DNA from: Escherichia coli
GTDB lineage: Bacteria > Pseudomonadota > Gammaproteobacteria > Enterobacterales > Enterobacteriaceae
NCBI RefSeq assembly: GCF_024223415.1
Contig: NZ_CP100500.1
Reading direction: 5' to 3' (one strand)
Length of the DNA stretch: 64,000 bases
The position numbers and the translations under genes were made by a program. This document shows positions 14,082-49,564 of this stretch, piece after piece. Every line of letters starts with the position of its first letter. The first letter of the stretch is position 1. The notes below the pieces were generated by a model. That model had not been told where the DNA came from, searched no databases, and saw nothing but the letters and a program-made list of their open reading frames with translations.

Positions 14082-14092
14082 AAGGGGGATGT

Positions 14093-15060: not shown

Positions 15061-15067
15061 GGACGAT

Positions 15068-15808: not shown

Positions 15809-15823
15809 TCCGGAGAGTCAGCG

Positions 15824-19216: not shown

Positions 19217-19542
19217 AAACCTTCCGCTGGAAAGTGAAACCCGGTATGGATGTGGCTTCGGTCCCTTCTGTAAGAAAGGTGCGCTTTGGTGATGGCTATT
19301 CCCAGCGAGCGCCTGCCGGGCTGAATGCCAACCTGAAAACGTACAGCGTGACGCTTTCTGTCCCCCGTGAGGAGGCCACGGTACTGGAGTCGTTTCTGGA
19401 AGAGCACGGGGGCTGGAAATCCTTTCTGTGGACGCCGCCTTATGAGTGGCGGCAGATAAAGGTGACCTGCGCAAAATGGTCGTCGCGGGTCAGTATGCTG
19501 CGTGTTGAGTTCAGCGCAGAGTTTGAACAGGTGGTGAACTGA
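19213..19542 (+). CDS. M: Minor tail protein gpM
   Basis: 109 aa in the lambda order, overlapping the H stop. Confidence 0.9.
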   Translation: MKTFRWKVKPGMDVASVPSVRKVRFGDGYSQRAPAGLNANLKTYSVTLSVPREEATVLESFLEEHGGWKSFLWTPPYEWRQIKVTCAKWSSRVSMLRVEFSAEFEQVVN

Positions 19543-20240
19543 TGCAGGATATCCGGCAGGAAACACTGAATGAATGCACCCGTGCGGAGCAGTCGGCCAG
19601 CGTGGTGCTCTGGGAAATCGATCTGACAGAGGTCGGTGGAGAACGTTATTTTTTCTGTAATGAGCAGAACGAAAAAGGTGAGCCGGTCACCTGGCAGGGG
19701 CGACAGTATCAGCCGTATCCCATTCAGGGGAGTGGTTTTGAACTGAATGGCAAAGGCACCAGTACGCGCCCCACGCTGACGGTTTCTAACCTGTACGGTA
19801 TGGTCACCGGTATGGTGGAAGATATGCAGAGTCTGGTCGGCGGAACGGTGGTCCGGCGTAAAGTTTATGCCCGTTTTCTGGATGCGGTGAACTTCGTCAA
19901 CGGAAACAGTGACGCCGATCCGGAGCAGGAGGTTATCAGCCGCTGGCGCATCGAGCAGTGCAGTGATTTGACAGCGGTCAGCGCGACCTTTGTACTGGCC
20001 ACGCCGACGGAAACGGACGGCGCTGTTTTTCCGGGACGTATCATGCTGGCCAACACCTGCACCTGGACCTATCGCGGCGATGAGTGCGGTTATAGCGGTC
20101 CGGCTGTCGCGGATGAATATGACCAGCCAACGTCCGATATCACGAAGGATAAATGCAGCAAATGCCTGAGTGGCTGTAAGTTCCGCAATAACGTCGGCAA
20201 CTTTGGCGGTTTTCTTTCCATTCACAAACTTTCGCAGTAA
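19542..20240 (+). CDS. L: Minor tail protein gpL
   Basis: 232 aa with a C-terminal Cys cluster (CTWTYRGDECGY..CSKCLSGC), as in lambda L. Confidence 0.9.
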   Translation: MQDIRQETLNECTRAEQSASVVLWEIDLTEVGGERYFFCNEQNEKGEPVTWQGRQYQPYPIQGSGFELNGKGTSTRPTLTVSNLYGMVTGMVEDMQSLVGGTVVRRKVYARFLDAVNFVNGNSDADPEQEVISRWRIEQCSDLTAVSATFVLATPTETDGAVFPGRIMLANTCTWTYRGDECGYSGPAVADEYDQPTSDITKDKCSKCLSGCKFRNNVGNFGGFLSIHKLSQ

Positions 20241-30807: not shown

Positions 30808-30858
30808 CTGTAGTTATGTACAGGTGTTATTTTTAGCTGTGTGGATAACCAGTGTCAA
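30808..30858 (-). promoter_or_regulatory. Candidate SOS-regulated promoter: TTGACA -35, TAAAAA -10, LexA box CTGTACATAACTACAG
   Basis: A CTGT-N8-ACAG palindrome at 30808-30823 lies between the putative -10 and the Shine-Dalgarno sequence. TTGACA (complement) is at 30853-30858 with a 17-nt spacer. Confidence 0.6.
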
Positions 30859-34839: not shown

Positions 34840-36840
34840 TCATCCTTGTTGCTGAAGCATGGGGAATAATTGTTCGCAAAGCAAAACACCGTTATTCATT
34901 GCTTCTACCCGTGCCTCGCTTTCTGTATTACGAAATTGTCCCAACACATGTGCCAGCCGATAAAAACCCACCGCGGTGAGGTCATTCGCCAGCAACTCTG
35001 CCTGACCAATAGCACTCTGTTCCTGATAGCGCCAGCCGTTATGGAGCAGTTGAATAAGTAACGCCTGGCAGCGTATCAGCAACTGATGAGCAGTAGACGG
35101 CACAGGCAAAACGCTGGCAGAAGGTAGCGGTGCCACAGGCGTAGTTTCTGCGTCCAGCGCCCAGGCACGGGTTTTTGTCATCATCACCCGTGGTTCCAGT
35201 GTCAATTGCCCTTCAACAAAACTGACAAAGCCAGAAACCAGACACACGGGGTCGTCTGTTTGTTGCAAAAGCGCCGCCATGCGTTCAACGGCATAAGGTG
35301 CGCTGGCTGAGGCTGGTAATGATAACGTCAGCACATTATCTTCCCCTTCGCCGCTAATGACCTGCGCATCCAGCGTCTGGCGGCTGCTGTCCCAACCGAG
35401 CGAAATACACTCAGCGACCGGCAGAATAAATAAGTTATCGACCTGATTAAGAGGCCGTATGCAGGCGGGGGGACGCTGGCGTAAATATTCCCGCAAAGCC
35501 ACAATGCCCGGCTGGCGTAACGGCGCGCTCAACATTTGCCAGGCATCAGGCGACAGCGGCACAACGCTGCTTAAGCGGTTGCGGGTAGCTAACAGCAGCT
35601 CGCCATCGGCACTGCGTTTTGCTGCTTGTGAAACAATTTGCCCGCCCGCCAGTGCGCCAGCCTGAAAACTAAACAGCCGACGCGTAGCTGCCGGTGAGTT
35701 TTCCTGTTCACTTCGCGGCCAACTGCGCGAAAGGTGCAAAATACTGCCGGTGTCGGGATCGGTAAACCAGATGCGTAAACCATAATGCTCAATATCCTGC
35801 CAGCAACGCATACCTAAAGACACCAGCCGCAGATGATCAAGCTTTGCTTCTCCGGCAATGCCAGAGCCAACGACCGTGCGCCACGGCACAGGAGGAACTT
35901 CACCAATACTGTCGCGCCGGGCCATCTCTTGTGCGCAATTTAATCGACTGTTTAATGCCGCAAGCTGATGTAAGCATTCTCCGGCATTATAGTGGCTGGC
36001 GCGGGCGTGGAAGGCATCAACGCTGGCGCGCAGTTGCCGTAGCGATTCACTCACCCAGCGCCAGTTGCAGGTCTCTGCCGCCTGCAATGCGCGGTTGAAT
36101 GCTGCCTCGTAATGGATGAGCGGCTGGCTGATGCCGCCAAGCCATAATGTCTGGCTTAATTGCTGAACATATTGACGACACGCGTTGCCTTCTTCGCTGG
36201 CAAACGGATCGTCAGATGATGTGACGTGTTCGCTGCGCATCTGCCAGATTAAATGGTTAAATTCTGCTTGCTGCGCTTTGGCCTCGACGAAGGCCTGTAC
36301 CGCCAGTACGACATGTTCGCAAAGTGTGCCTTCAATACAATCACAACGGGCGAAACGAATACTGCTGCGGGAATAAAAACGCACATCGCTCATCGGTAAG
36401 CGGGCAGAGGGAATTTCACCCGGCGCACAGAACAACTCAATGGTGATGCCTTTAGCGACCAGCGCCTGTGCGCGTTTGCGGGTAGCATCGGGAAGGGTAG
36501 CCAGTTCTTCCAGCCAGATTGCCGGATCCCACTCTTCTTCTTTTTCCGTAGACTGAGTGGTGGCACAAAGTCGTTGATAACTTAACACCAGCATCACGCG
36601 ATGACGGCACATACCGTTGGCCCCGCAACTGCACTGAGCCTCTTTCAGTGCCTGGCCGTTCGCCAGCTGGGTACGGACACCGTCACTGAAGGTGGCGATT
36701 AAAGCGTCGTTCTCATGGCTGATCTCCGGGACGTTGCCATTTTCCAGTTCCTTAAGACTGCGCTTAACAAAACCGGCATTGCTTAACGCCGTCAGGGCCT
36801 GCGGTGTCAGTTCTAATAATTCCGGACGTAGTGAATTCAT
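34840..36840 (-). CDS. yehQ: SWIM zinc-finger protein YehQ
   Basis: Start MNSLRPELLEL, with a 4-nt ATGA overlap with the yehP stop. Two CxC-x(n)-CxH motifs are present: CSCGANGMCRH and CDCIEGTLCEH. Confidence 0.9.
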   Translation of the reverse strand: MNSLRPELLELTPQALTALSNAGFVKRSLKELENGNVPEISHENDALIATFSDGVRTQLANGQALKEAQCSCGANGMCRHRVMLVLSYQRLCATTQSTEKEEEWDPAIWLEELATLPDATRKRAQALVAKGITIELFCAPGEIPSARLPMSDVRFYSRSSIRFARCDCIEGTLCEHVVLAVQAFVEAKAQQAEFNHLIWQMRSEHVTSSDDPFASEEGNACRQYVQQLSQTLWLGGISQPLIHYEAAFNRALQAAETCNWRWVSESLRQLRASVDAFHARASHYNAGECLHQLAALNSRLNCAQEMARRDSIGEVPPVPWRTVVGSGIAGEAKLDHLRLVSLGMRCWQDIEHYGLRIWFTDPDTGSILHLSRSWPRSEQENSPAATRRLFSFQAGALAGGQIVSQAAKRSADGELLLATRNRLSSVVPLSPDAWQMLSAPLRQPGIVALREYLRQRPPACIRPLNQVDNLFILPVAECISLGWDSSRQTLDAQVISGEGEDNVLTLSLPASASAPYAVERMAALLQQTDDPVCLVSGFVSFVEGQLTLEPRVMMTKTRAWALDAETTPVAPLPSASVLPVPSTAHQLLIRCQALLIQLLHNGWRYQEQSAIGQAELLANDLTAVGFYRLAHVLGQFRNTESEARVEAMNNGVLLCEQLFPMLQQQG

Positions 36841-37973
36841 GACTGAAGATTCTCCGCAAGCCATGATGCCAGCTCGCCCGGCGTCATGGCGGCTATTTGT
36901 GCGCCGACATTAACCAGCGCCTGGGCCGTATCGCGGTCATAGCAAGGTGTTGCGGTGCTATCGAGCGCTGCCAGTCCCAGCACTTTGATGCCGCTCTGGA
37001 CACACTTTTTCACCTGATGCGTCAGTAATGATGATGAACCCCCTTCGTAAAAATCGCTCACGAGGATAATGACGCTTTTCGCTGGTTGTTCAATAAGTTG
37101 CCGACCATACTCCACGGCACTGGCGATATTGGTCCCGCCGCCCAACTGTACTTTCATTAATAACTCTACCGGATCGGCAACGTCTGCCGTGAGATCAACG
37201 ACGCTTGTGTCAAACGCCACCAGATGGGTACGAATGCCGGGTAACTGCCACAAACAGGCCGCCATCACCGCAGAGTGGATCACCGAATCGACCATCGATC
37301 CGCTTTGATCAACCAGTAAGACCAGTTGCCATTGTTCGCTTTGGCGTTTAATGCGGCTGTTAAAGCGGGGGGATTCGATATACAACTTGCCGTGTTGCGG
37401 GTGCCAGTGTTGCAGGTTGGCGCGCAGAGTACTTTTGAAATCAAAGTTTCGCGCCAGTGGAATAAATGAACGGCGACGGCGATCGCGGACACCAGAAAAA
37501 GCCTGACGAACTTCCTTTGCCAGTCGAGCCATAATTTCTTCAACAACCTGGCACACTATCCGGCGGGCGGCAGCCAGTACTTCGGGGTTCATCAGATGTT
37601 TGGTGTGCAAAACAGCGCGTAGCAGGCTTTCAGAAGGCTGCATACGTTCCAGCACGTCGAGATTCGTCACCACATCTTCAATGCCGTAGCGCAGCACGGC
37701 ATCGCTTTCCAGCCGCTCAATCACCTGCTGCGGAAACAGCGTGTGAATACTGTTGATCCACTCAGGGGTGGTGAGATTTGAGCCACCTAATCCACCGGAA
37801 CGTTCACCACGCTGGAGCCGTTCAGGATCGCGCCCATACAGCCACTCCAGCGCGTGGTCTATCTGCCGGGCGTTGTCATCCAGCCCACAAAGCGTCGTTT
37901 CTGCCGCTTCGCCAAGAATTAATCGCCAGCGTTGTAGCTCACGGGTGGTCAGAAGATCGTTCAGTTCAGACAT
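36837..37973 (-). CDS. yehP: von Willebrand factor A (VWA) domain protein YehP
   Basis: 378 aa starting at MSELNDLL. It carries the MIDAS-type motif LLVDQSGSM and overlaps the yehM stop by 8 nt. Confidence 0.9.
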   Translation of the reverse strand: MSELNDLLTTRELQRWRLILGEAAETTLCGLDDNARQIDHALEWLYGRDPERLQRGERSGGLGGSNLTTPEWINSIHTLFPQQVIERLESDAVLRYGIEDVVTNLDVLERMQPSESLLRAVLHTKHLMNPEVLAAARRIVCQVVEEIMARLAKEVRQAFSGVRDRRRRSFIPLARNFDFKSTLRANLQHWHPQHGKLYIESPRFNSRIKRQSEQWQLVLLVDQSGSMVDSVIHSAVMAACLWQLPGIRTHLVAFDTSVVDLTADVADPVELLMKVQLGGGTNIASAVEYGRQLIEQPAKSVIILVSDFYEGGSSSLLTHQVKKCVQSGIKVLGLAALDSTATPCYDRDTAQALVNVGAQIAAMTPGELASWLAENLQS

Positions 37974-40245
37974 GGAAAACTCCCCAGTTTTGCAGCGATG
38001 CCAGTGCCTGCTGTTCGAGTTGTTGATGATGTGCAATGGCCTGTGGTGGACAATGCAACGGCATTTGCAGCGCCGAAACGGGAAGTTGCGCCAGTTGATA
38101 ATGCTCAAGCACCTGATGCGCCAGCGTCCCGCGTTCTCGTGGTGGTAGCCAGGCCATCGCCGCGCGTAAATCGGGCAGGGCGTTAATAAAATCGGCTTCA
38201 CTCAGTTGATTTAAATGACTGCTGAAACCAGCGATAAATGCCGGCTGACAGGCCAGTTGATGGCGGGCCAGCGCCAGCAAACCGTGCAGCGCCTCACCAG
38301 ATTGTGCCGGGGATAACTGCGCCAGCATCGTCAGCGCCGCTTCGGCACTGGCGTTGGGATGTTCCAGACGCATTAGTGCGCCAAGAGCCGCGCCGCGATC
38401 CAGCGCCGGGGCATGAATTGCCTGACTGCGTCGCTCCAGTAAGGCTACCGCCGCAGAAAGAGAAACGCCGGGTAAATTAACGCCGCTATGTAGATCGCGC
38501 AGAATATGGCAAAGCGCTTGCCAGCTATGCAGGTGAGCGTGAAACTCCTTTTCATCCGGTCTGCCGTTAGATTCACACAGCCACAGCGTGCGATCGATAG
38601 TCGCGCATAACGTCGTTTGTAATATCTGCGCGCCTTGCATACCGCTAATTTCATCCAGCCGCCATAAGGCATAAAGCACTTCCAGCGCCTGGCCCATTTC
38701 GGCAAATTGATTTTCCTGGGCGATTAATAGTGTGAGTTGCTCCAGTAATTGTTGACTGAAGGACGCCAGACCCGCTAACGCCGCCTGGCTAAGACATGTG
38801 GTGATACTGCCGATTCCGCCCGCGTCCAGCATATCGGCTTCTAATTTATTGCGTGCGGCTTCCTGGAGTGTGGCACCAAAACAGGCGGCCTCAATCAATG
38901 CCGCATGCTGGCTAAGCGGGCGGGTTAATTTCCAGCGTTCTTCACCGTTGCCTGCAAGTGTCAGTGTACTTCCCTGCTGGCGTACAATCCCAGGGATCTC
39001 CAGTATTGCCAGCCGATGTAACACCTGACTTTGCGCCAGCCCATCGGGGGTAAAGCGATTTAAGGTAAGCTCCGCCGGAAGGGAGATTGCGGTACGTTCC
39101 AGTTCGCAGGTGACATCTTTTGGCAGAGGCGGTTGTGGCGTAGAAGGGGCAAGTTTACCGAATCCGTCACCCGCTAATGTGTCTATCAACGTTAGCAGAA
39201 TCGGATCGGTATCGGGATGAATAACGCCGCGATAGCTCCACGGCAACGGCGCGTTCAGGGCTTCTTTAATCAGCGAGCCTGCTATGGCATCCAGCCAGTC
39301 AGTGCGTAACGGTAGTGTATGACCGCGCAACTGTGCCAGCGCCATCGCATGCAGATGAGCGGCAGCCATATCCGCGGTAGAAGCGGGCAATTTGTGCTGG
39401 CGCAAACGGGTAAGGATAGTTTTTAGCAGTTGTTCACCGGCCTTCTGCAAGCCCCACTGCCAGCACCAGTTTTGCCATACCGGGGCAGGCATTCCTGAAA
39501 GGTATCCTGCCAGCACATCAAGGCGCTTTTCACTGTAGGGTGTGAGATAACAACCTGTAACGGCATCTGCCAGCGAGGGCAATTCTGGCTTGTTAATTTT
39601 CTGAGGGCATTCGCGCCACATCTTTGCCAGTGCCGGAGCGTGCCAGCCACCGCAGACAACTAACACGTCGCCATTATTTTGCTGCATCGCCCATCCAATC
39701 CAGCGGGCCATAAAGGCTTCGCGCTGACGATTGAGCGCATCGCCGGAGGCGTCGCCCCGCAGTTGGGCAAAATAGTGCGCCAGCGCAGAGGGTAATGCAG
39801 TTTGCTGGCTTTCATCTTCGAACAAGTGATCCCACAGGGTATCGCTGTTATCCATGCGGGTGGCACGCAGCAGTAAGGCCTGGCTTTCATCTTGCGTATC
39901 AGGCGAATCGTCCTCTTCTTCACTCTGCGCCCAGCAAGGCAAATCGATGAAGTAAGTTTGTGCCTGAATGCGACGTGCGGCTTGTAGCGCCTGCCACTCC
40001 GGCGAAAATTCAGCAAATGGCGTCCAGGCACCACGCCCGGGGGCTGCACCGTCCTGATACTGGCAATAACTGTAAATAGCTACCGGAAGCTGGTGGGCTA
40101 AAAACAGTTCGTCTACCCGGTCATTAAAATCAGCCGGGCCTTCAATCAACACGTATCGTGGCCGCTGGCTTTCGATTAACGATTTCACCAGCCGGGCGCA
40201 GGCCGGACTATGATGCCGGATGCCGACAATTAACGGCTCGCTCAT
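37966..40245 (-). CDS. yehM: Large uncharacterised protein YehM (DUF5682-like)
   Basis: 759 aa starting at MSEPLIVGIRHHSPACARL. No recognised catalytic motif. It starts 10 nt after the yehL stop. Confidence 0.9.
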   Translation of the reverse strand: MSEPLIVGIRHHSPACARLVKSLIESQRPRYVLIEGPADFNDRVDELFLAHQLPVAIYSYCQYQDGAAPGRGAWTPFAEFSPEWQALQAARRIQAQTYFIDLPCWAQSEEEDDSPDTQDESQALLLRATRMDNSDTLWDHLFEDESQQTALPSALAHYFAQLRGDASGDALNRQREAFMARWIGWAMQQNNGDVLVVCGGWHAPALAKMWRECPQKINKPELPSLADAVTGCYLTPYSEKRLDVLAGYLSGMPAPVWQNWCWQWGLQKAGEQLLKTILTRLRQHKLPASTADMAAAHLHAMALAQLRGHTLPLRTDWLDAIAGSLIKEALNAPLPWSYRGVIHPDTDPILLTLIDTLAGDGFGKLAPSTPQPPLPKDVTCELERTAISLPAELTLNRFTPDGLAQSQVLHRLAILEIPGIVRQQGSTLTLAGNGEERWKLTRPLSQHAALIEAACFGATLQEAARNKLEADMLDAGGIGSITTCLSQAALAGLASFSQQLLEQLTLLIAQENQFAEMGQALEVLYALWRLDEISGMQGAQILQTTLCATIDRTLWLCESNGRPDEKEFHAHLHSWQALCHILRDLHSGVNLPGVSLSAAVALLERRSQAIHAPALDRGAALGALMRLEHPNASAEAALTMLAQLSPAQSGEALHGLLALARHQLACQPAFIAGFSSHLNQLSEADFINALPDLRAAMAWLPPRERGTLAHQVLEHYQLAQLPVSALQMPLHCPPQAIAHHQQLEQQALASLQNWGVFHV

Positions 40246-40255
40246 GCATCTTTCC

Positions 40256-41344
40256 TCACGGCAGGCGGTGGCGGGCTTGATAATAAGCCTGCCAGTGAGC
40301 TTCTTTATGTGTGGCGACACGCTGTTCGAAGTAACGGCGCAGACGCGCGCGATCTTCTTCGTTATCTTTGACGATGGTTCCGGCAATACATTCCACCAGG
40401 TCGGCAGGCTCCCCCGCGCGATTCGCTAAAAACCAGGCGCGGACGCCCACAGCATGGGCCACGTTCACGGCTTCAGCGGTGGACATAATCGCTGTCAGTG
40501 TATCCATTGACGTTTTCTTTTCGCCGTTGGCACGCAGATCGCGGAAGGTGCGGACCAGTAATTCCAGTACCGCGTCAGGCACTTTATGCGGAATACCGCT
40601 ATGGGCCAGCAAACGCGCCGAAGCACTGGCGACCAGTTCCAACTCCTGGGCGAAATCCATAATCGGAAAAACCGTTTCAAAATCGAAGCGACGCTTTAGC
40701 GCAGCACTCATTTCATTGACGCCGCGATCGCGGGTATTGGCAGTGGCAATAATATTAAAGCCTTCTCGCGCATAGAGCTGACTGGCTTCACCAGTGAGTT
40801 CCGGCACCGTCATCACCCTGTCAGAAAGCATACCTAACAGACAGTCCTGCACTTCCAGCGGTGTACGCGTTATCTCTTCGAAACGGACGATTTTGCCGTC
40901 GCGCATTCCCTGATAAAGCGGGGCAGGGACCAGCGCTTCCGTTGACGGACCATGATTGATAAGCAAGGCGTAGTTCCAGCCATACTTGATTTGATCTTCG
41001 GTGGTAGATGCCCCGCCCTGGATGGTTAACCCGGCATCGCCGCTAATAGCGGTTGCCAGTAATTCAGAAAGAAGAGATTTTGCGGTACCCGGTTCCCCCA
41101 CCAACATCAAACCGCGGCCGGTAGCAAGAGTGACTAACATACGTTCGACAGCGGAGGGGCTAATCACCACTTTACGGCTGATATTTTGCGCTTCGTCGCC
41201 AAGGATAAAAGCACGGGCCGCAGGCAAACTTAACTGCCAACCGGGCGGGCAAGGTGCGTTATCATTTTGTTTTAATTTTGCCAGTTCATCGGCGTATAAC
41301 ACAGCAGCAGGCGGACGCTGCAGATGATTATTCTGCGGTGACAT
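40256..41344 (-). CDS. yehL: MoxR-like AAA+ ATPase YehL
   Basis: 362 aa starting at MSPQNNHLQ. It has Walker A GEPGTAKS, a Walker B-like IVRFEEITR, and a sensor/Arg-finger region ATANTRDRG..ALKRRF. Confidence 0.9.
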   Translation of the reverse strand: MSPQNNHLQRPPAAVLYADELAKLKQNDNAPCPPGWQLSLPAARAFILGDEAQNISRKVVISPSAVERMLVTLATGRGLMLVGEPGTAKSLLSELLATAISGDAGLTIQGGASTTEDQIKYGWNYALLINHGPSTEALVPAPLYQGMRDGKIVRFEEITRTPLEVQDCLLGMLSDRVMTVPELTGEASQLYAREGFNIIATANTRDRGVNEMSAALKRRFDFETVFPIMDFAQELELVASASARLLAHSGIPHKVPDAVLELLVRTFRDLRANGEKKTSMDTLTAIMSTAEAVNVAHAVGVRAWFLANRAGEPADLVECIAGTIVKDNEEDRARLRRYFEQRVATHKEAHWQAYYQARHRLP

Positions 41345-41451
41345 ATATTCATCCCTGAAATGTATTAATGAAATAAACGATATTTTACGCGCAATAAATG
41401 TTTGGCGCATTAGTTGTTTGAGCGAAAAATATCTGGAAAGCAGATCACAGT

Positions 41452-41490
41452 AAATAAAAAAACCTGCTGGTGAGGCAGGTTCTTTTATTT
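41452..41490. terminator. Bidirectional terminator separating yehK from yehL
   Basis: ACCTGC-TGGTGAG-GCAGGT, flanked by AAATAAAAAA upstream and TCTTTTATTT downstream. Confidence 0.7.
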
Positions 41491-41650
41491 ACTATTTTCA
41501 GGCCTAACACCACAGCCTGTGCAACATCGTGTTCCAACGAACGAATTATAACCACGGCTGGACCCCGTTGCAATTAAGATAATGAGATTTATAATCCAGG
41601 CCATTGGGACGTTGCGCCGGATCGGACCAATTTGAATTATTTAGAGTATA

Positions 41651-41968
41651 TTATTCTATTTCTTGGTTGAATATATTCTGTAGTTCACGATTAAAAATTG
41701 CTATTACAGTTTCAGGTGATTCACCTCGTAATTTCCGCTCATCAATACACTCATCTCTTATATAAATCAACGCATCATTTATTAGCGGGTCAGCATCTTC
41801 TCGATCACGTTGATGAAATGTTGGACGTAGCCGGAATCGCTCCAGTCGATAGACGGAACCTGTAAATAATTCAGAGCATTTATGGATCTCAAGTCTGAAG
41901 GAAAACGGATCTTCAGGTACAGGGACCTCATAATCGTAAATAGCAACCAGCTCTTTTTGCACGATCAT
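41651..41968 (-). CDS. yehK: Small uncharacterised protein YehK
   Basis: 105-aa ORF in the K-12 position. The gene is AT-rich relative to its neighbours. Confidence 0.8.
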   Translation of the reverse strand: MIVQKELVAIYDYEVPVPEDPFSFRLEIHKCSELFTGSVYRLERFRLRPTFHQRDREDADPLINDALIYIRDECIDERKLRGESPETVIAIFNRELQNIFNQEIE

Positions 41969-42028
41969 CGCTTTCCCCGCTGGTAAGTCGTGTTGATAAC
42001 GGGCAGTTGCATCACTGCCCGCTGTGTT

Positions 42029-45000
42029 TTAATGGAAAATGACGTCAGGTGCGCTTAACGCCTCACTCAAATCAAACACATCAAGTTCGGCAAAGGTGAC
42101 GGATTTATTGTCACGGTACACTCGAAGAGAACGGAAGCTCATTAGCGCTTTGCTATCAACATTGTAGTGGTTAAAACCGGGTGAAAACTTAAGGACCAGC
42201 CGGTACTCACCCAGGTTATAGACAAATGCGTCCTCATAGCCTGACTCCCAGCCTTTGTATCGCATTCCCATAAGTTGCCCAACGGTAGCGGATTTACCTT
42301 CCCAGCGAGTCAGGCTGTTACTGGTTGACTCGTCAGGTGTGAGCAGCACCGTGCGGCGCGACAACTGGCGAAAAGGCGGCATAATTTCGTAATCGGCAAA
42401 AAGCTGTGCAAATTCACTGCGCATTTCTGCTGTCATTTCTAACGGGTGGGCAATGCCAATCAGAGCGTCCGCAGGCAGGTCAATTGGCTCATCTTGCGCA
42501 TTGCAGAACTCCCCCTCTGCGGCCACACGAAAGGCTTTGAGTAAACAACGCGGTTCATTTGCCGGATAAACCCCCCATATTAATCGCTGGGTAACCAGAC
42601 GGGTAAAGGGATGATTAACAAACAGAGAATGAAAATCTGCCAGCGACCAGCGTCGGGTGGTACGTAGGGCCGTTTCAAGACGCGGGAGCAGGTTTTTGCT
42701 CACCTGAGTAGCATCTTTTTTTAGCCCTTTTAGTCGGGCCAGTGCCTCGGGCGCTTTCAGTTGATCGTCATCGGCGCGCAAACGGGGAACGCTTTTCTGG
42801 CGAACGTTTTGCTGATCAAAGATAACCGGGTTGAGATTTTCATCGAAGCGAACGGTAAACTGCCGGGGACCAAAATCAAAACTCAACGCCTGCGGATCAT
42901 CAAGGCCCAGGGTTGGGACTAATCTGTCCGCTAGCTCTTCCTGGCTTAGCCCGCGATTTTCTGCGACCACCTGAAGAAATTCCGCCGCGTTATCACGTAA
43001 GGGGCGGGATTTAGCCCGTTGCGATATATGATGCAGCTGTATCAGCGCCATATCATTATTCATCAGGGTAAGGATGTTCAGGCCGCTGACAGCACGGGCA
43101 GATTTGCCTTCTTGTGGCCAGGCGAGGATCTGTGTCGTCAGATCCCGTGCCGTGCTTTCGTCACCAAAGAGACTTAACGCCAGAAATGCCCAGTTGTCTT
43201 TTGCGGGGGCACCAGCTTGTTGCCACGCAGTGAAGAGATCCCAAGCAAAAGCTGCCAGCGTTTGTGGCTGGCAGAACGTTTTCAGTTGTTCCAGCCCGCT
43301 ATAAAAACGTCCCCCCTGGGTAAAGCGCAGCATTTCGCCGATAATTTCCAGAGCGTCATTGGTAACAGTTTGATTATTAGTGATAAGGCGCGGCCTGGAC
43401 CACATTTGCGGATGCCAGAAATCAGGGGCTTTTGGAATGCGTGCCGGGTAAATGTCCATTGGACCCTGTTTAAGCAACTGCTCCAGGGCAGACCATACAT
43501 CTGTACGCTGCCAGCGGTTTGCCACGGTTTGTAGCAATTCGCCATGTCCCTGTTCGTACAGTAAACGCAGGGCAAGTAATGCGGCTTCGCTATTATCGCT
43601 GGGTTTGGTAAAGACAAGAGGGATAAGTGCACTAGCCGTATGTTCCGGCCATTGTAAAATCCACTGGCGAGCCAGATCACGCTGCGCCGCGAAACGTCGC
43701 CAGACGTGGGCAACAGGCAGCGCCAGTTCTGTTGCGCCAAAATTTAAAATTAACGGAAATGTTTCTTTTGGACGATGTGAAAAAGCCAACAGCAGACCTG
43801 GTAGCGCATCCAATCCGAGGATACTGAGAAAATAGTCCTCACCCGCGAACAGATGCTTTTTCTCATTGATACGCAGCCAGAAGGTCAAAGCCATCTCACG
43901 CGGCAACTGTGCCAATAAATACAGGTTCCAGACACTCTTTTCCGGACGATAATGTGAGTAGTTGTCATTTTCCCATATGTTAATTAACGCTTCTATGTGA
44001 CCGCTGCGGAGCGCCTGTTCTGCTAATTGTGCTTCCGGGGAGTTCCAGCCATTCAGGATCTCTTCAACCCGCCCCTGGTAGTAATGCCACTGAACAAAGA
44101 GTGAATTGCGTGCAGCATCCAGTTTTCCGGGGAGTATATAATTCAGAAACAGCCATACATCATCCCCAAAACCCAGTTCCTGTAATACAACTCGTCCACT
44201 TTTTTGTTCCATGCGTTGCGCAAGAGATTCCGTGCTGAAATAACGGGCAGGCTCAGTGGCGGCAAGCCTCTCTTGTTCGCCTGGTTGCCAGTAAACTTGC
44301 GGAGTTAATTCGAGCGGTGCCAAATCAAGACGTGGAGCTGTCATTTTTTTCTTACTACGCCACGGTGGTGAAACGAGGATTTCTGGCAGATTGCTGTTAT
44401 CGGTGCCATCAATAACCGGTTTGGGCGGTGCCGATAAATAACTCTTCAGCACTGACTGGGGTTGAGTACTTAACCACGGCATCACTTCTGCTGCCAGTTG
44501 TGGCTGCGATGCCATCAGCGTTTGTAACAGCGCACGCCAGTATTCATCGCGTGCTTTTTGCTGTGCAGGCAGCTTTTTGTCTTCGATGATTGGATAACCA
44601 GGGCGGGCTGGTGGTTCTGTTAACGCCAGCAGTTCTGCCAGTGCGGCGAGCGTCGCATGGGGGAAGTTTTTATGGTATTTAGCTACACGTTGCAGGCTGG
44701 GTTTGTTTTTATCAGCCACCAGTAGCAAGGTGCGGATGACTTGCGGATGGTTAATTTGTACCAGCAGACTGCCGCAATCTTCTTTATGGGCATACATCGC
44801 GAGGCGCGGAATGGCTGCCAGTCCTTGTTCGCGCAAAAGGGCGGCGCAGGCCGCGTAGCCGAAGTGGTTTTCATGCGACATGTAGCTGGCTTCTCGATCG
44901 CTAAATATATCCTGGCTCCAGTAGTGTTCGAGTTTTCTCACCGCTGTGGGGTCATTAGCAACAACTTTTAACCACTCCTTAGAATGAAAATGAGTTCGCG

Positions 45001-45661
45001 GGCATTCAAGGCCTACCAACTCATTGGCTATTTCTGGTTTTTCCGGGAGGATCAGCGCAATAAAAGGGCGGCGAACTTTGGTTATTCCTGGTAGTGCGGC
45101 AATGAGTTTGTCGGCGCAACGCTGCCAGCAGCTTTCCTCTGCCAGAGAGAGATGCTTACGCAGTCGGAGATCGAATTCGTTATAGGTTTCTGAGCGATAA
45201 CCATAGCCATAATCCTCGTCCTGATACTGCAATGTCACTACCAGAGGATCACTCTCATAACACCGCGCAATAAACTGGCGTGCAATCACCACCTCAGTCG
45301 CATATTCCAGCCCCTCTTGTTGGACGATTTCGTCGAGCAACTGTTGGCTGTCATTTTGCGCGATACAGGCTAGCGCCGCCATTGTCCGGTCCGGGATTGA
45401 GGGTTTGTGTTCGCCGATCAAGTTGATGGCCTGCGTGATGGCGGACTGCCACTCCAGTGAAAAATTCTCATAACGCCAGACAATGTTTTTTTTCTTCTCA
45501 GCTTTTTGTAGCAATTCATCACCCAATGTCTGGATGAGACTTCCAGTGATAACGGACACTGGTTCGCCCGGCCAGCGACGATGACTGAGCGGCGTTTTGC
45601 CTTTTTTATATTTCAGTTCCAGTTGGGCGTTATCCGCCAGCCACGGTAATTCCTTGTCCAT
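42029..45661 (-). CDS. yehI: Large DUF4132-type protein YehI
   Basis: 1210 aa. Collinear paralog of the downstream-adjacent molR product (for example FGPRQFTVRFDENL vs FGPRQFTVSFDETL, and RRWSLADF vs RRWSLENF). Confidence 0.9.
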   Translation of the reverse strand: MDKELPWLADNAQLELKYKKGKTPLSHRRWPGEPVSVITGSLIQTLGDELLQKAEKKKNIVWRYENFSLEWQSAITQAINLIGEHKPSIPDRTMAALACIAQNDSQQLLDEIVQQEGLEYATEVVIARQFIARCYESDPLVVTLQYQDEDYGYGYRSETYNEFDLRLRKHLSLAEESCWQRCADKLIAALPGITKVRRPFIALILPEKPEIANELVGLECPRTHFHSKEWLKVVANDPTAVRKLEHYWSQDIFSDREASYMSHENHFGYAACAALLREQGLAAIPRLAMYAHKEDCGSLLVQINHPQVIRTLLLVADKNKPSLQRVAKYHKNFPHATLAALAELLALTEPPARPGYPIIEDKKLPAQQKARDEYWRALLQTLMASQPQLAAEVMPWLSTQPQSVLKSYLSAPPKPVIDGTDNSNLPEILVSPPWRSKKKMTAPRLDLAPLELTPQVYWQPGEQERLAATEPARYFSTESLAQRMEQKSGRVVLQELGFGDDVWLFLNYILPGKLDAARNSLFVQWHYYQGRVEEILNGWNSPEAQLAEQALRSGHIEALINIWENDNYSHYRPEKSVWNLYLLAQLPREMALTFWLRINEKKHLFAGEDYFLSILGLDALPGLLLAFSHRPKETFPLILNFGATELALPVAHVWRRFAAQRDLARQWILQWPEHTASALIPLVFTKPSDNSEAALLALRLLYEQGHGELLQTVANRWQRTDVWSALEQLLKQGPMDIYPARIPKAPDFWHPQMWSRPRLITNNQTVTNDALEIIGEMLRFTQGGRFYSGLEQLKTFCQPQTLAAFAWDLFTAWQQAGAPAKDNWAFLALSLFGDESTARDLTTQILAWPQEGKSARAVSGLNILTLMNNDMALIQLHHISQRAKSRPLRDNAAEFLQVVAENRGLSQEELADRLVPTLGLDDPQALSFDFGPRQFTVRFDENLNPVIFDQQNVRQKSVPRLRADDDQLKAPEALARLKGLKKDATQVSKNLLPRLETALRTTRRWSLADFHSLFVNHPFTRLVTQRLIWGVYPANEPRCLLKAFRVAAEGEFCNAQDEPIDLPADALIGIAHPLEMTAEMRSEFAQLFADYEIMPPFRQLSRRTVLLTPDESTSNSLTRWEGKSATVGQLMGMRYKGWESGYEDAFVYNLGEYRLVLKFSPGFNHYNVDSKALMSFRSLRVYRDNKSVTFAELDVFDLSEALSAPDVIFH

Positions 45662-45670
45662 GCTCTTTCC

Positions 45671-48600
45671 TTATTCAAACAGGGCTTCAATATCGTTAAT
45701 TAGCTCGCTGGCGGTGATGGCATCGATTACGGAGAACTGCGCTTCCTGTGTTGAATTACTCCCCCAGCCATATCTTTCTGCTTTGCCTTCCCATAGCCAC
45801 AGCTTGCTTAAGAGCTGCTCAGCGCTGAGTTCGGCTGGCGACATGCCTACCGCAAAGCCTTCATCGATTTCCATGATTAACGACCAGCGACCCAAAGGTT
45901 TGATCATCCATCCGATCCAGCCTCCATCCTGTGGTTCGCCCTTTATCCAGCCTTTATTCGCCAGCCCCATGACCCGACCACTCGGGCATTTTCTGCCTGC
46001 CCAGCGGGTCAGTTCACTGGCATTGCGCTCGGCTTCTGTCAGGGCGTAGCTGTTACGGTCGATCTGGCGGAACGGTGGTAGCAGTTCGTAGTCGGCAAAA
46101 AGCTGACCAAAGGCGGCAGCATCCGTTGGTGATATTTCCAGAACGTGAGGAGTGCCGATAGAGATATCGCCTTCCGGCAGGGTGAAAAGATCATCGTCAG
46201 CGGTGCTGGAGCTGTTATCTTCTGCTACGCGAAAGCAAGCCAGTAGCTGGTTTTCGGCGCTATAAACGCCCCAAATCAGACGGCGGGTTAAGTGACGAAC
46301 CAGCGGATGCTCAACCAGGAAGAGCTGGAAGTTTTCCAGCGACCAGCGGCGGCGCAGGCACATGGCGGATTCCAGCCTTGCTACCTGCTGGGCGGCGATG
46401 GTACGCGCATCTTTTTTCAGCAATTTGTAGCGGTTAACCGCATCGTTCGCCCGCGTTTCATCATCGCTTTTGTTCGGTTTGGGCAGGTCTTTCAGGCGGC
46501 TGCCGGAAACATCACGCACAAACGGTTTTAAGGTTTCATCAAAGCTGACGGTGAACTGCCGTGGGCCAAAATCCAGCAGCAGCGAACCGTTATCATCCAG
46601 ACCGAGATCCGGTGCTAACCGATCTTCAAGCTCCGCCACCGTGAGTTCGCGGCTCTCGGCAATGTCGGCAATTTTTTCTTTTGCCCGCTCCTGTAATGCT
46701 TTGAATTTCAGTTTCTGGGCGATGCCGTTAAGCTGCATAAGGGCGATATCACTACCGATAGCAGCGAGAATATCCAACCCAACGGTGGCGCGTTTATGCT
46801 GGGATTCACCAGGCCAGGCGCGTATTAATGGCGTCAGTTTGCGGGCGGTGTCATCGTTACCGAGAACGCCTAACGCAGTGAACGCCCAACTCTCTTTCGA
46901 CGGCGCGCCAGCGGTCTGCCAGGCGGTAAACAGATCCCAGGCAAATCCCGCCAGTGAGTCGGCGGAACAGACGTCTTTCACCTGCAATAATCCCGGATAC
47001 AGAGCCTCTTCCTGAGGGAAGCGGAGCATTTCACCGAGGTGGAGGAGGGCGCTATCTGGCAGTGATTGGGCATTTGCTTTTAATACCGGGCGCGTCCAGA
47101 GCGATGGCTGATAAAAGGCCGGAAGAGTGGGGATTTTTGTCGGGTGATTATCTAAGGGATCGAGCGCAAGCAGAGCGTTCACCGCATCGGTTACTTCCGG
47201 CTGGTTATAACGTCGGGCGATTTCTTGCAGTAATGGCTGATGACCGTTTTCGGTAAGCATACGCAAGGCAGCGCGGGCGTTATCCTGGGCTTCACCGGCT
47301 TTGCCGAGCGCCGCAGGCAGCAGGCCGGTAAGGGCATGTTCCGGGTATTTCAACAGCCAGCTACGGGCGTTTTCGCGTAGCGTTTTCAGTTTGTTGAAGG
47401 CACGGGCGACGGCAGGAGCCAGCTCACTCGCTGCGAAGTAATTCGTGATGGGCAAGGCTTCTTGTGGATAGCGTGCAAGTGAGTTTACTAACCCAGGTAA
47501 CCCTTTGAGTCCAAAATGTAACATGGAGTATTCGGTATCGGTATGTGGAGATAGGGTAAGGGCATTCCATGCTTTTACTGCTTTCTCCAGCGGCAATGTT
47601 GTCAAAATCCCCAACTGCCAATAATGCCCGGTAGGTGAATGAAACACCTTAAATTCACTTAGTAAGGTTGAATAATCTTCATTTAGCCATGCCTCAACTA
47701 CCGCTTCGGGAGCTTTAATATATGTACCAGCGATCCGTCGTTGAAAACCCATCCTTGCCAACAGGTTGGTAGTACTTTCTTCATGGCTAACCGTGATGTG
47801 TTTTGAATACCAGATATATTTCGCCAAAAGTTGATTACTGATTTCTTCTGTCAGATAACAGATTGGCTCAATGCCTAATGGCGCTAAATCCAGCACCGGA
47901 ATCGGCGATTTTTTCTTTTTCGAAAGCCAGGGAGGGGAGACTACTACGGCTGGCAGTAGATCGGCGCTGGCATGGTTTGAGGGCTGTGTCAGTTGTTGCT
48001 GGCATGATTTCAGTACGGCAACTGCGGGTGTCGAGAGCCAGGGAATGACCTGTTCTGCCAGTGCTGGTTGTGAGATAAGCATTGTCATTAGCATAATGCG
48101 CCAACTGTTCTCTTCTTTTTGCCCAAGAAGTTCCGTCAGTGCCGCCATTGCTGCATGTGGGAACGCAGCAATGGCTTTCGTCATCCGATCGTGACAGCGT
48201 TTAGTTTGCCCGGCTACACGTATAAGCAGTGTCAATGCGAACGGATGATTGATATGACGCAACACATCGGCGCAGTAGTCACTTGCGGCATAGGGAGCAA
48301 ATCGGGGCAGGGCTGCAACACCTTGCTCCTGTAATACGGTGGCTGACCATATCGCACCACAATAGTAATCATCAAAAATGGCATATGGTTCGTGATATTT
48401 TTCTAATGAGGCAAGAATGTGCTCATCAGTCGCCACTATTTTTAACCACTCAAGCGAGGGTAATTTTTTTTGCCCCAGTAGACGCTGGGCAATTTCATGT
48501 GCAATTTCTGGTTTTTCGGGTAATAACAAAGCAATTAATGGTTGCCGCCATTCTGGAATATGTGGAATTGCTGCAATAAGTTTTTGTGCACATTTTTGCC

Positions 48601-49465
48601 AGAGAGACTCTTCCGTCAGTGATAAATGTTTACGTAGGCGTAATTCAAATCTGGAATATTGCTCCAAGTAGCTAGGTGCAATGCCAGACGGCAGAATAAT
48701 AATGACATTATTCGCATAATCCCATTCAATATCAATCTGTTGAAGGTGTGTTATTACATCAGTAGCATATTCCAGACCGCCTTCCTGGACGATCTGATCC
48801 ATAACATCCTCACGCACTTTATATCTTGTGCATTTCATTTCAAGTGCCGTGAGTACAGCCATTACTGGTGATGGTAACTGTGTTGTTTTCAGGCCGTCGA
48901 TCTGACTGATCGCCTGGGCGACGGTGTTTTGCCATTCTAAAGAACAGGCGCTGAAGTCAAATGTGGCTGTTTTATTATCCCGTTGCGACACACTACAGGC
49001 TAAGCGACGTAATTGGGTCAATTTGTCTGCTTGCTGAACAGGAACTCCGGGAAAGCGGCGATGACTTAACGTGGTGTGTACAACTTCGGGCGGAAAAACG
49101 ACAGCAATATCTTTCGCCAGCCACGGTAAAACAGCATCTGTATTTTTGTCAGGCGCACGGGTTTCTGCTACGAAAGAGGGTTGTTCCTGAATAATGGTGG
49201 ATAAGTCCGCTACCTTGAGAGAGCCCGTTACCGTTTGGGAAGGTTGCAAAGAATTATCCTTCGCTTGCTCCACATACCCCTTCTTCACCTTCTCCGCAAT
49301 CAGCTTAAGTTCCGCTTTTTCCGCTGCCGCAGCATCTGAAAAACTTTTTATCTGACTTTGCCCTTTGGTGCCAACTTTTCCCCAACTGATATGCAACTCG
49401 TTTCCCTGTTGCTCCACCGCCCAGAATTTATGTGATTTTTCGTCCTGATAGATAAAGTGTCTCAT
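45671..49465 (-). CDS. molR: WGR-domain + DUF4132-type protein MolR/YehH, intact 1264-aa form
   Basis: N-terminal WGR module MRHFIYQDEKSHKFWAVEQQGNELHISWGKVGTKGQSQIKSF. The remainder is paralogous to YehI. It is a single uninterrupted ORF here. Confidence 0.9.
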   Translation of the reverse strand: MRHFIYQDEKSHKFWAVEQQGNELHISWGKVGTKGQSQIKSFSDAAAAEKAELKLIAEKVKKGYVEQAKDNSLQPSQTVTGSLKVADLSTIIQEQPSFVAETRAPDKNTDAVLPWLAKDIAVVFPPEVVHTTLSHRRFPGVPVQQADKLTQLRRLACSVSQRDNKTATFDFSACSLEWQNTVAQAISQIDGLKTTQLPSPVMAVLTALEMKCTRYKVREDVMDQIVQEGGLEYATDVITHLQQIDIEWDYANNVIIILPSGIAPSYLEQYSRFELRLRKHLSLTEESLWQKCAQKLIAAIPHIPEWRQPLIALLLPEKPEIAHEIAQRLLGQKKLPSLEWLKIVATDEHILASLEKYHEPYAIFDDYYCGAIWSATVLQEQGVAALPRFAPYAASDYCADVLRHINHPFALTLLIRVAGQTKRCHDRMTKAIAAFPHAAMAALTELLGQKEENSWRIMLMTMLISQPALAEQVIPWLSTPAVAVLKSCQQQLTQPSNHASADLLPAVVVSPPWLSKKKKSPIPVLDLAPLGIEPICYLTEEISNQLLAKYIWYSKHITVSHEESTTNLLARMGFQRRIAGTYIKAPEAVVEAWLNEDYSTLLSEFKVFHSPTGHYWQLGILTTLPLEKAVKAWNALTLSPHTDTEYSMLHFGLKGLPGLVNSLARYPQEALPITNYFAASELAPAVARAFNKLKTLRENARSWLLKYPEHALTGLLPAALGKAGEAQDNARAALRMLTENGHQPLLQEIARRYNQPEVTDAVNALLALDPLDNHPTKIPTLPAFYQPSLWTRPVLKANAQSLPDSALLHLGEMLRFPQEEALYPGLLQVKDVCSADSLAGFAWDLFTAWQTAGAPSKESWAFTALGVLGNDDTARKLTPLIRAWPGESQHKRATVGLDILAAIGSDIALMQLNGIAQKLKFKALQERAKEKIADIAESRELTVAELEDRLAPDLGLDDNGSLLLDFGPRQFTVSFDETLKPFVRDVSGSRLKDLPKPNKSDDETRANDAVNRYKLLKKDARTIAAQQVARLESAMCLRRRWSLENFQLFLVEHPLVRHLTRRLIWGVYSAENQLLACFRVAEDNSSSTADDDLFTLPEGDISIGTPHVLEISPTDAAAFGQLFADYELLPPFRQIDRNSYALTEAERNASELTRWAGRKCPSGRVMGLANKGWIKGEPQDGGWIGWMIKPLGRWSLIMEIDEGFAVGMSPAELSAEQLLSKLWLWEGKAERYGWGSNSTQEAQFSVIDAITASELINDIEALFE

Positions 49466-49564
49466 TCTGCATCCCTGTAATTTTATCCAGTTGAATGCAG
49501 ATGCTACCAGTATTTATGCGGGTTAGAGAGAGACAAAATCGCAAGAAAACAACTTTAGGAATTT

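Follow-up and report, generated by a model that had tools for sequence, protein, structure and literature searches.

Gene content and organization of the molR-yehQ locus

We have analysed a cluster of seven genes, molR, yehI, yehK, yehL, yehM, yehP and yehQ, in a stretch of 64,000 nucleotides (nt) of Escherichia coli DNA (NCBI RefSeq assembly GCF_024223415.1, contig NZ_CP100500.1; this whole stretch is referred to as the window). The window matches many E. coli strains at 99.9% identity. According to the open reading frames (ORFs) and the RefSeq annotation, all seven genes lie on the minus strand, flanked by metG and the yehR lipoprotein gene (Table 1). By comparing sequences, predicting structures and drawing on published expression data, we establish that the cluster represents one conserved multi-gene module with two types and with links to DNA-damage regulons, comprising a MoxR-VWA motor, a hydrolase-fold subunit with an invariant site, SWIM and HEAT-like adaptors, and a variable, sensor-like subunit. 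In E. coli, molR/yehI and yehLMPQ appear to constitute a single self-contained, horizontally spread, five-component machine. A preliminary description of this DNA, made by inspection of the letters, had stated that the cluster lacks an assigned function; we likewise found no functional study in the literature, which here and below means open-access papers and preprints.

The genes yehL, yehM, yehP and yehQ are tightly packed. A spacer of 10 nt separates yehL from yehM (TGA-GGAAAGATGC-ATG), yehM and yehP overlap by 8 nt (ATGTCTGA), and yehP and yehQ overlap by 4 nt (ATGA). All three junctions are as previously described; the 9 nt spacer between molR and yehI had not been mentioned. Probable translational coupling of yehLMPQ is visible in the sequence. 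The cluster is divided into two transcription units, molR-yehI-yehK and yehLMPQ, that are set apart by the terminator of a small RNA (sRNA) gene, OrzO-P. The preliminary description had recognized a bidirectional terminator separating two units. The hairpin (41461–41481, between yehK and yehL) is real and does separate them; its identity is corrected here to the terminator of an orphan OrzO-P sRNA in the yehK-yehL gap.

Table 1. Features of the molR-yehQ locus (window coordinates)
Feature	Position	Strand	Description
LexA (SOS) box	49473-49492	-	AACTGGATAAAATTACAGGG; 8 nt upstream of the molR start codon
molR	45671-49465	-	1264 aa; WGR + DUF4132; reading frame intact in the window
MolR hypervariable cassette	47471-47875	-	~aa 531-665 (~135 residues); sharp in-frame borders
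yehI	42029-45661	-	1210 aa; DUF4132; MolR paralog without WGR
yehK	41651-41968	-	105 aa; no Pfam domain
OrzO-P antitoxin sRNA gene	41456-41531	-	Rfam RF02083; 99.9 bits (gathering score 60); model positions 1-76 of 76
yehL	40256-41344	-	362 aa; AAA_5; MoxR-class AAA+ ATPase
yehM	37966-40245	-	759 aa; DUF5682
YehM domains			predicted N-terminal ChaN/TraB/erythromycin-esterase fold (~aa 1-330), middle domain, helical-repeat C-terminus
yehP	36837-37973	-	378 aa; VWA_CoxE
yehQ	34840-36840	-	666 aa; double SWIM

Base composition is uneven across the cluster. Between window positions 34500 and 49500, G+C content is 55–57% from yehQ to yehL, ~50–55% over most of molR-yehI, and only 44–47% near yehK and at the molR 5ʹ end. 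A mosaic or horizontally acquired origin would fit this unevenness.

The gene set is conserved across phyla

When one genome per species was scanned, relatives of YehM were confirmed at 570 places. We fetched 80 of these as loci and labelled their ORFs through iterative searching, with the E. coli proteins as queries. Most complete loci consist of one to four MolR-like genes followed by homologs of yehL, yehM, yehP and yehQ (L-M-P-Q), an order found in gamma- and betaproteobacteria and Actinobacteria. The Variovorax locus, for example, has genes for WGR-DUF4132, a 145 aa protein, AAA_5, DUF5682, VWA_CoxE and SWIM proteins that overlap on one strand, and Lentzea and Glycomyces usually have three tandem MolR-like genes. 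In Shinella, Rhizobium, Methylobacterium, Accumulibacter and Hydrogenophaga the order is L-M-MolR-P-Q. With the MolR-like gene lying inside L-M-P-Q in these lineages, gene order shows it to be a member of the operon. In every complete locus, yehP lies two genes downstream of yehL, or three where a MolR-like gene is interleaved. The suggestion that the genes form one functional set is borne out by these loci, in which MolR-like genes and L-M-P-Q share a strand in gamma-, beta- and alphaproteobacteria and in Actinobacteria; co-occurrence outside the Enterobacteriaceae, which had been put forward as a test, is found across phyla.

Among 1.84 billion representatives, 3295 clusters at the 50% identity level belong to the DUF5682 family (E ≤ 0.001), and members are also carried by large plasmids of Rhizobium, Streptomyces, Iodobacter and Deinococcus. 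Several E. coli “plasmid” matches were discounted, being multi-megabase records that are probably misfiled chromosomes. Phage carriage of a YehM-type cassette was also rejected: a 14 kb record labelled “UNVERIFIED: Bacteriophage sp.” (MT835988.1, locus L085) has AAA_5-DUF5682-VWA_CoxE beside genes for a polysaccharide deacetylase, MgsA/RarA, DUF5717, DUF5716 and a TPR protein, and a Pfam scan found a phage hallmark domain in none of 10 ORFs; it is probably bacterial DNA. We also observed an alphaproteobacterial metagenome-assembled genome (L064) that has L-M-P-Q with no detected MolR-like gene. Two giant secreted-type repeat proteins, with MopE metal-binding motifs, Lamin-tail and FG-GAP, flank L-M-P-Q in that locus (4065–6665 and 13522–20179).

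A DNA-damage-induced counterpart in Deinococcus

Bacteroidota loci, together with a second locus in Massilia frigida, have a different architecture, SWIM (~440–465 aa)-DUF5691-AAA_5-DUF5682-VWA_CoxE. The same architecture is present on a plasmid of Deinococcus taeanensis (L084), where the species description identifies the locus as ddrTUVWX, with a 78 aa ORF between ddrV and ddrW. DdrV, DdrW and DdrX are 41, 29 and 34% identical to YehL, YehM and YehP, respectively (BLASTP; E 3e-78, 8e-37 and 1e-70). In Deinococcus deserti, ddrTUVWX is among the genes most strongly induced by radiation; induction depends on IrrE/DdrO, and a radiation/desiccation response motif (RDRM) precedes the operon. The D. 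taeanensis locus has an RDRM-like sequence, TTACGCCAGAAACATAA, directly after a TTGACA-17-TACAAT promoter, and this resembles published RDRM sites such as TTATGCTATTTACATAA. Deinococcus radiodurans has no ddrTUVWX; in this species, the WGR protein DR2173 and the DUF4132 protein DRA0166 are strongly derepressed upon depletion of DdrO.

The two types share an AAA_5/DUF5682/VWA_CoxE core in the same order, a SWIM protein and a link to a DNA-damage regulon. They differ in the fifth component, which is a DUF5691 protein (DdrU) in Deinococcus and a WGR-DUF4132 protein in E. coli, and in the position of the SWIM gene, which is upstream of the core in ddrTUVWX and downstream of it in E. coli. Moreover, the SWIM protein has 466 aa in ddrTUVWX as opposed to 666 aa in YehQ, with no detectable similarity outside the finger. 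Profile comparison of DUF5691 with the MolR family gave only a weak match (hhalign probability 1.8%). Since the SWIM gene is downstream and DUF4132 takes the place of DUF5691, the E. coli cluster is classed as a sister type of ddrTUVWX. As a side observation, both types occur in one genome in Massilia frigida, on two contigs (MolR-type L-M-P-Q and SWIM-DUF5691-L-M-P; L017 and L082), and a Chitinophagaceae locus (L081) has SWIM, DUF5691, L, M, P and a DUF4132 protein in a single cassette.

The repressor also differs, being DdrO in Deinococcus and LexA in E. coli, and whereas the whole ddrTUVWX operon is induced, the known box in E. coli is at molR only. MolR is listed among the LexA-regulated genes of E. 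coli with a known SOS box (PMC6590174, Table 1 of that paper), a published regulation that the preliminary description had missed. The molR promoter is also activated by BglJ-RcsB. A similar box, CTGGATGTATGCACAG, is found at −19 of the Intestinirhabdus ortholog. The link to nucleic acids and DNA damage that had been proposed for the cluster is therefore supported by regulation in both types, through the LexA box at molR and DdrO/RDRM at ddrTUVWX. A CTG-N12-CAG sequence near yehL was read and rejected as a LexA box. Exact CTGT-N8-ACAG sequences occur elsewhere in the window, at 18707–18722 and at 30808–30823, the second apparently inside mlrA. These are probably chance occurrences: a random expectation of ~0.9 applies, and two or more turn up in 24 of 100 shuffled sequences.

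YehL and YehP form a MoxR-VWA pair

The motifs that had been picked out in the cluster (GEPGTAKS, DQSGS, two SWIM fingers and VGIRHHSP) were all located in the sequence. The assignment of YehL as a MoxR-type ATPase is confirmed by a match to AAA_5 (PF07728, 119.4 bits) and by its Walker A (GEPGTAKS, aa 83–90) and Walker B (IVRFEE, aa 152–157) motifs. YehL has given its name to a subfamily of MoxR proteins, a group usually regarded as chaperones for maturation, and it is one of two such ATPases in E. coli (PMC3893208). The nearest sequences of solved structure are the AAA_5 modules of Midasin (E 7e-10, PDB sequence search). YehP ends with a VWA domain that matches VWA_CoxE (PF05762, 243.5 bits) and contains the metal ion-dependent adhesion site (MIDAS) motif DQSGS at aa 222–226, as had been noted; a PDB sequence search with YehP gave no relatives. 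In a scan of the cluster proteins against NCBIfam, the only matches were to GvpN, MadB and cobaltochelatase, all below threshold, and one to WGR alone. As a general principle, the VWA protein of a MoxR-VWA pair captures a peptide and the MoxR protein remodels it (PMC7159879). A +1 frameshift site inside yehP has been published (PMC2790909); we located it (GTGGAGTATGGTCGGC) at 37100–37115 on the minus strand. A +1 shift there would yield a protein of 304 aa rather than 378 aa, with a shortened VWA domain.

Several characterized systems resemble this pair. RavA-ViaA likewise combines a MoxR-class AAA+ ATPase with a VWA/MIDAS partner in one operon and is presumed to act by ATP-driven remodelling. 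However, YehL belongs to its own subfamily and not to RavA; there is no LARA domain, and the DUF5682, SWIM and DUF4132/DUF5691 proteins are additional, obligatory partners. CoxD-CoxE, NorQ-NorD and CbbQ-CbbO pair an AAA_5 ATPase with a CoxE-type VWA protein that has an N-terminal helical domain, but the system described here has extra subunits and damage regulation, and no client enzyme adjoins it in 24 loci whose flanks were compared. Indeed, no operon for a client metalloenzyme was found in the E. coli locus or in the 25 families listed for the 119 ORFs that flank these loci. Midasin/Rea1 couples rings of AAA_5 modules to a MIDAS domain that pulls clients; since it is a single eukaryotic polypeptide of 4700–4900 residues acting on pre-ribosomes, the resemblance is at the level of modules only.

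The MoxR-vWA ternary conflict systems (Kaur et al. 2020, PMC7159879) have a MoxR-vWA pair, a large third component that is a potential sensor, and variable, diversifying parts, all of which recall the yeh cluster. Nevertheless, the preliminary suggestion of a connection to this family did not hold for YehL. The bpMoxR match of YehL (PF20030, 18.4 bits) is under the cut-off of 27, VMAP, iSTAND and beta-propeller domains are all missing from a Pfam scan of the seven proteins, no effector domain follows the vWA domain at the C-terminus, and there is no PADLOC match. SWIM, WGR and TraB are not mentioned in the paper describing the ternary systems (PMC7159879).

YehM is a candidate effector

The N-terminal domain of YehM is predicted to share the alpha/beta fold of the ChaN/TraB/Tiki/erythromycin-esterase superfamily (predicted local distance difference test score, pLDDT, of 78 for the model), and the C-terminal half is HEAT-like. 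At the sequence level there is no membership of the wider superfamily, which also includes PrgY and RRSP, since Pfam gives DUF5682 only; YehM is also ~430 residues longer than these proteins, a difference made up of the middle domain and the helical repeats. Across 28 family members, R10-H11-H12 (within VGIRHHSP, aa 7–14), E35 and H202 do not vary. The invariant motifs in these 28 sequences, drawn from both system types and including Deinococcus, are (G/P)-[VI]-R-H-H-(S/G)-P, L-[IV]-E-G-P, SPEW, F-x-D-L-P and C/T-G-[GA]-x-H. The hint of a TraB/Tiki-type hydrolase in the preliminary description holds at the level of the predicted fold. The conserved His…Glu…His residues may be equivalent to the catalytic or metal-binding GxxH-type motifs of that superfamily. 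Given a hydrolase-type fold and invariant residues, we infer that YehM is the only candidate effector enzyme of the cluster, in which catalysis is suggested by conservation only.

Four of eight unusually long DUF5682 homologs are natural DUF5682-VWA_CoxE fusions, and these come from divergent lineages (P0423, P0470, P0483 and P0485). The existence of such fusions argues for a physical contact between YehM and YehP. Other long homologs (P0393, P0462 and P0478) have 400–600 additional residues in which no Pfam domain was found.

YehQ matches SWIM (PF04434, 31.1 bits), and the two zinc fingers that had been noted in it, CSCGANGMCRH (aa 70–80) and CDCIEGTLCEH (aa 166–176), both follow the CxCxnCxH pattern. 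C70, C72, C78 and H80 are invariant in 21 homologs. The remaining ~480 aa have no recognizable relative, and the YehQ profile matches nothing in the PDB.

MolR is a giant paralog of YehI with a hypervariable cassette

The two proteins of ~1200 aa that had been described as paralogs, one of them starting with WGR, are indeed 37% identical over 1184 aa, with lengths of 1264 aa (MolR) and 1210 aa (YehI). WGR is at aa 6–69 of MolR (PF05406, 66.9 bits), and DUF4132 is at aa 988–1173 of MolR and aa 954–1138 of YehI. WGR is absent from YehI, from every MolR-like paralog seen in Glycomyces and from some other loci. The MolR family profile matches 2ra8 and the WGR domain of PARP3 in the PDB (E 8e-4), and outside WGR no PDB relatives were found by sequence. 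The N-terminal and central region of MolR is helical and poorly conserved. The C-terminal module is kept across phyla: family-wide, the final 500 residues are the most conserved and ~aa 560–600 the least. An initial profile search had yielded E. coli alleles only, and the family profile was deepened with C-termini from outside E. coli. An AlphaFold2 (AF2) model of aa 740–1264 (pLDDT 93.5) has a HEAT-like repeat followed by alpha/beta domains for which no significant solved relative was found; DUF4132 likewise has no solved relative. On the strength of this model, MolR is best regarded as a scaffold or adaptor and not as an enzyme.

Comparison of this strain with a B2 strain revealed a hypervariable cassette within MolR, where sliding-window analysis of the ratio of nonsynonymous to synonymous substitution rates (dN/dS) gave 25–41 differences per 60 codons and saturated dS. 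Alignment and BLASTP show that two E. coli cassette alleles are ~43% identical, and they are as distant from each other as from the versions in Klebsiella or cryptic-clade Escherichia (45–52% identical). The allele of the window is found in 3385 of 5426 E. coli genomes; ~1400 give short partial matches only. Between the same two strains, MolR as a whole has 88% protein identity (dN/dS 0.29), YehI 92% (0.19; a moderately variable region lies at aa 360–540), YehQ 95% (0.12), and YehL, YehM and YehP 97–99% (0.02–0.09), as compared with >99.4% (~0.01) for flanking core genes. In other genera, divergence increases in the order L≈P<M<Q<MolR, and MolR has local variable patches; the pair L006 and L047, in which the paralogs are non-orthologous, was left out of this comparison.

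The yehK-yehL gap is a zor-orz site, and MolR-type genes are often disrupted

YehK is not part of the conserved system: it has no match in Pfam, NCBIfam or PADLOC, and among the loci surveyed it is confined to Escherichia. No ZorO toxin ORF was found in the 306 nt spacer between yehK and yehL in the window. The same spacer is 631 nt long in the B2 strain clone D i2 and contains a ZorO toxin ORF, MDTLTQKLTVLIAVLELLVALLRLIDLLK, and the sRNA. In locus L083, the coordinates to compare with the OrzO-P region of the window are 11104–11179 and 11425–11514. Because a complete OrzO-P gene is present here, and the sRNA and ZorO occur at the same place in the B2 strain, the gap is the site of a zor-orz type I toxin-antitoxin locus (PMC3919570), of which the window has kept an orphan antitoxin after loss of the toxin.

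At ≥80% coverage, molR-yehI is found in 4665 of 5426 E. coli genomes. YehI is frameshifted in a close strain, XYEH3934, and yehK is frameshifted in clone D i2. In sublineage L1a of sequence type 131 (ST131), the blaCTX-M-15 transposon TnMB1860 sits in the metG/DUF4132/yeh region of 184 isolates (PMC9334617). A clinically successful clone thus tolerates losing the MolR-type genes. In two further loci, from E. coli ECGI0523 (L004) and Shigella flexneri SFBU0723 (L030), molR and yehI appear as many short ORF fragments, as does most of yehLMPQ in the Shigella locus. Either massive pseudogenization or error-rich assemblies could produce this fragmentation.

Discussion

What is the function of a MoxR-VWA motor that is combined with a hydrolase-fold protein, a SWIM protein and giant WGR-DUF4132 proteins? 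We tentatively favor a DNA-damage-induced surveillance system of the conflict type, consisting of sensor, switch and effector, over a classical repair enzyme, although we would stop short of calling this role probable. We rank it first because of the allelic cassette, the expansion of paralogs, the patchy spread and the frequent loss. A sensor-like MolR is consistent with a paralog number that ranges from 1 to 4 and with polymorphism of the cassette at the level of the species. We propose that the giant MolR-type proteins would act as sensors or adaptors. WGR would contact DNA ends, breaks or other nucleic-acid structures, the cassette would bind a ligand that varies, the best candidate being some protein or nucleoprotein from an induced prophage or a mobile element, and the conserved HEAT-like/DUF4132 C-terminus would dock onto the core. 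YehP, through its VWA/MIDAS domain, might then grip a peptide of a client or partner subunit, and the MoxR ring of YehL would spend ATP on remodelling that peptide, thereby serving as a threshold switch. Remodelling could expose or load the ChaN/TraB/Tiki-type hydrolase site of YehM, with cleavage of a target as the outcome, while the two SWIM fingers of YehQ may anchor the complex on nucleic acid or on a partner. We infer this order of events, from sensing by MolR/YehI through ATP-dependent licensing by YehL/YehP to cleavage by YehM.

Several observations weigh against a surveillance role. There were no matches to PADLOC-DB 2.0 (E ≤ 0.01) for eight proteins. The 119 ORFs flanking 24 representative cassettes include no recurrent neighbor, one true defence gene (Wadjet JetA) and a few generic ATPase matches; Pfam showed transporters and metabolic genes. 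The candidacy for defence raised in the preliminary description finds no backing in these flanks, which are not defence islands. In E. coli, yehLMPQ is near-core, being present at a fixed position in 5202 of 5426 genomes at ≥80% coverage, and molR is disrupted in K-12 with no known defect. Damage regulation is restricted as well. LexA-type boxes upstream of 46 cassettes (gamma/beta, Cheo and alpha consensus) were seen only in Escherichia and Intestinirhabdus, and sequence reading gave no LexA box upstream of yehL. Since yehL lacks a box and an sRNA terminator lies between the two units, the damage link in E. coli holds for molR but is not shown for yehLMPQ, nor is it shown to be general. Within the MolR cassette, dN/dS is 0.27–0.39 with dS saturated, and positive selection is not demonstrated; old alleles with recombination, or relaxed constraint, would resemble the same pattern. 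Because dN/dS is below 1, we regard the cassette as evidence of old alleles that are maintained or exchanged, and not as proof of positive selection. Lastly, ChaN-fold proteins include non-enzymes such as haem binders.

Some of the same observations would be expected of a genome-maintenance machine, which we consider rather unlikely and rank second on the grounds of co-regulation with repair genes and the lack of a defence-island signal. Such a machine would be damage-induced and would use ATP to remove proteins stuck on DNA, such as crosslinks, trapped topoisomerases and stalled complexes. MolR would locate the lesion with its WGR domain, extraction of the protein would fall to YehL/YehP, and YehM would serve as the protease, in functional analogy to eukaryotic p97-SPRTN. 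It is in favor of this scheme that two unrelated repressors, LexA and DdrO, have placed components of the system with repair genes, that WGR and DUF4132 proteins are induced in D. radiodurans, where the L-M-P-Q core is absent, and that the cluster is near-core in E. coli, includes a hydrolase-fold subunit, and has neither a defence-island context nor a PADLOC match. MolR also has WGR in common with PARP1-3, in which this domain contacts DNA breaks; unlike these proteins, MolR has no ADP-ribosyltransferase domain, and its WGR is N-terminal. However, cassette alleles that are 43% identical within one species are unexpected of a housekeeping repair factor, as are variable paralog numbers, a patchy spread that includes plasmids, and frequent inactivation. 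WGR is missing from all Glycomyces MolR-like paralogs seen and from some other loci, and the literature gives no sensitivity phenotype. The earlier caveat, that the conserved position argues for a housekeeping or conditional role, is weakened by the hypervariable cassette, the variable paralog number and the frequent disruption.

The remaining explanations are less likely than either surveillance or repair. YehL and YehP could mature a host complex as a stress or proteostasis chaperone of the RavA-ViaA type, for which YehM, YehQ and MolR would be assembly adaptors. E. coli has two MoxR ATPases, a class generally associated with maturation, and YehL is among them, its VWA partner has a MIDAS, and MolR and the C-terminus of YehM are HEAT-like scaffolds; but this idea is improbable, as no conserved client gene adjoins the cassette in 24 loci, and it leaves damage regulation and the hypervariable cassette unexplained. 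It is slightly more doubtful still that the cluster is a decaying, horizontally acquired relic that has no current function in E. coli and varies through relaxed constraint. The disruption of molR in K-12, the frameshifts in yehI (XYEH3934) and yehK (clone D i2), the transposon insertion in ST131 L1a and the mixed G+C content (55–57% in yehLMPQ, 44–47% at the molR 5ʹ end) would all fit decay, yet most genomes keep the 1264, 1210, 759 and 666 aa frames intact, dN/dS is 0.02–0.29 for all genes, conservation of MolR in its C-terminal module extends across phyla, and the cassette borders are sharp and in frame. We consider least likely of all a CoxD/CoxE-like insertion of metal centers in molybdate or molybdoenzyme metabolism, as the old name “molybdate metabolism regulator” would imply. 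That name comes from a 1990 genetic study, here known through a paper that cites it, and the match of YehP to VWA_CoxE (243 bits) and the AAA_5 domain of YehL, like that of CoxD/NorQ/GvpN, are compatible with it. Against it, genes for molybdoenzymes, CO-dehydrogenase, nitric oxide reductase or Rubisco are missing from the 25 listed families of ORFs flanking the 24 loci, the molybdate genes of D. radiodurans are not co-regulated, and molR is disrupted in K-12, a standard model for molybdoenzymes.

The genes, their domains, the YehL subfamily, the SOS box of molR and ddrTUVWX are each already on record. In the literature, nothing joins these genes into one system, assigns a fold to DUF5682, describes the MolR cassette or assigns a function. 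Three long-standing puzzles may be one system: YehL, which is E. coli's second MoxR ATPase; molR, an SOS gene; and the highly radiation-induced ddrTUVWX operon of Deinococcus. Should this hold, E. coli would offer a tractable way into the problem. Experimental handles are provided by the putative active site of YehM (H11, H12, E35 and H202), the MIDAS of YehP, the Walker A motif of YehL and the swappable cassette of MolR. If the surveillance role is correct, the system would represent a new effector logic, in which a Tiki/TraB-fold hydrolase is gated by a MoxR protein, and a new type of sensor, WGR-HEAT-DUF4132. If the role is in repair, it would be a new bacterial pathway that clears damaged nucleoprotein. 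A broader and more speculative proposal, which we think unlikely to hold in full and somewhat more so than repair, is that yehLMPQ-molR and ddrTUVWX are two types of a hitherto unrecognized, phylum-spanning class of DNA-damage-triggered immune or surveillance systems. In these, hypervariable WGR-HEAT-DUF4132 sensors would recognize DNA-protein adducts, or else proteins or nucleoprotein ends belonging to induced prophages and other mobile DNA, and a Tiki/TraB-type DUF5682 protease licensed by MoxR-VWA would destroy what is recognized. If true, this class would be a bacterial counterpart of the AAA+-coupled protease pathways that operate on chromatin.

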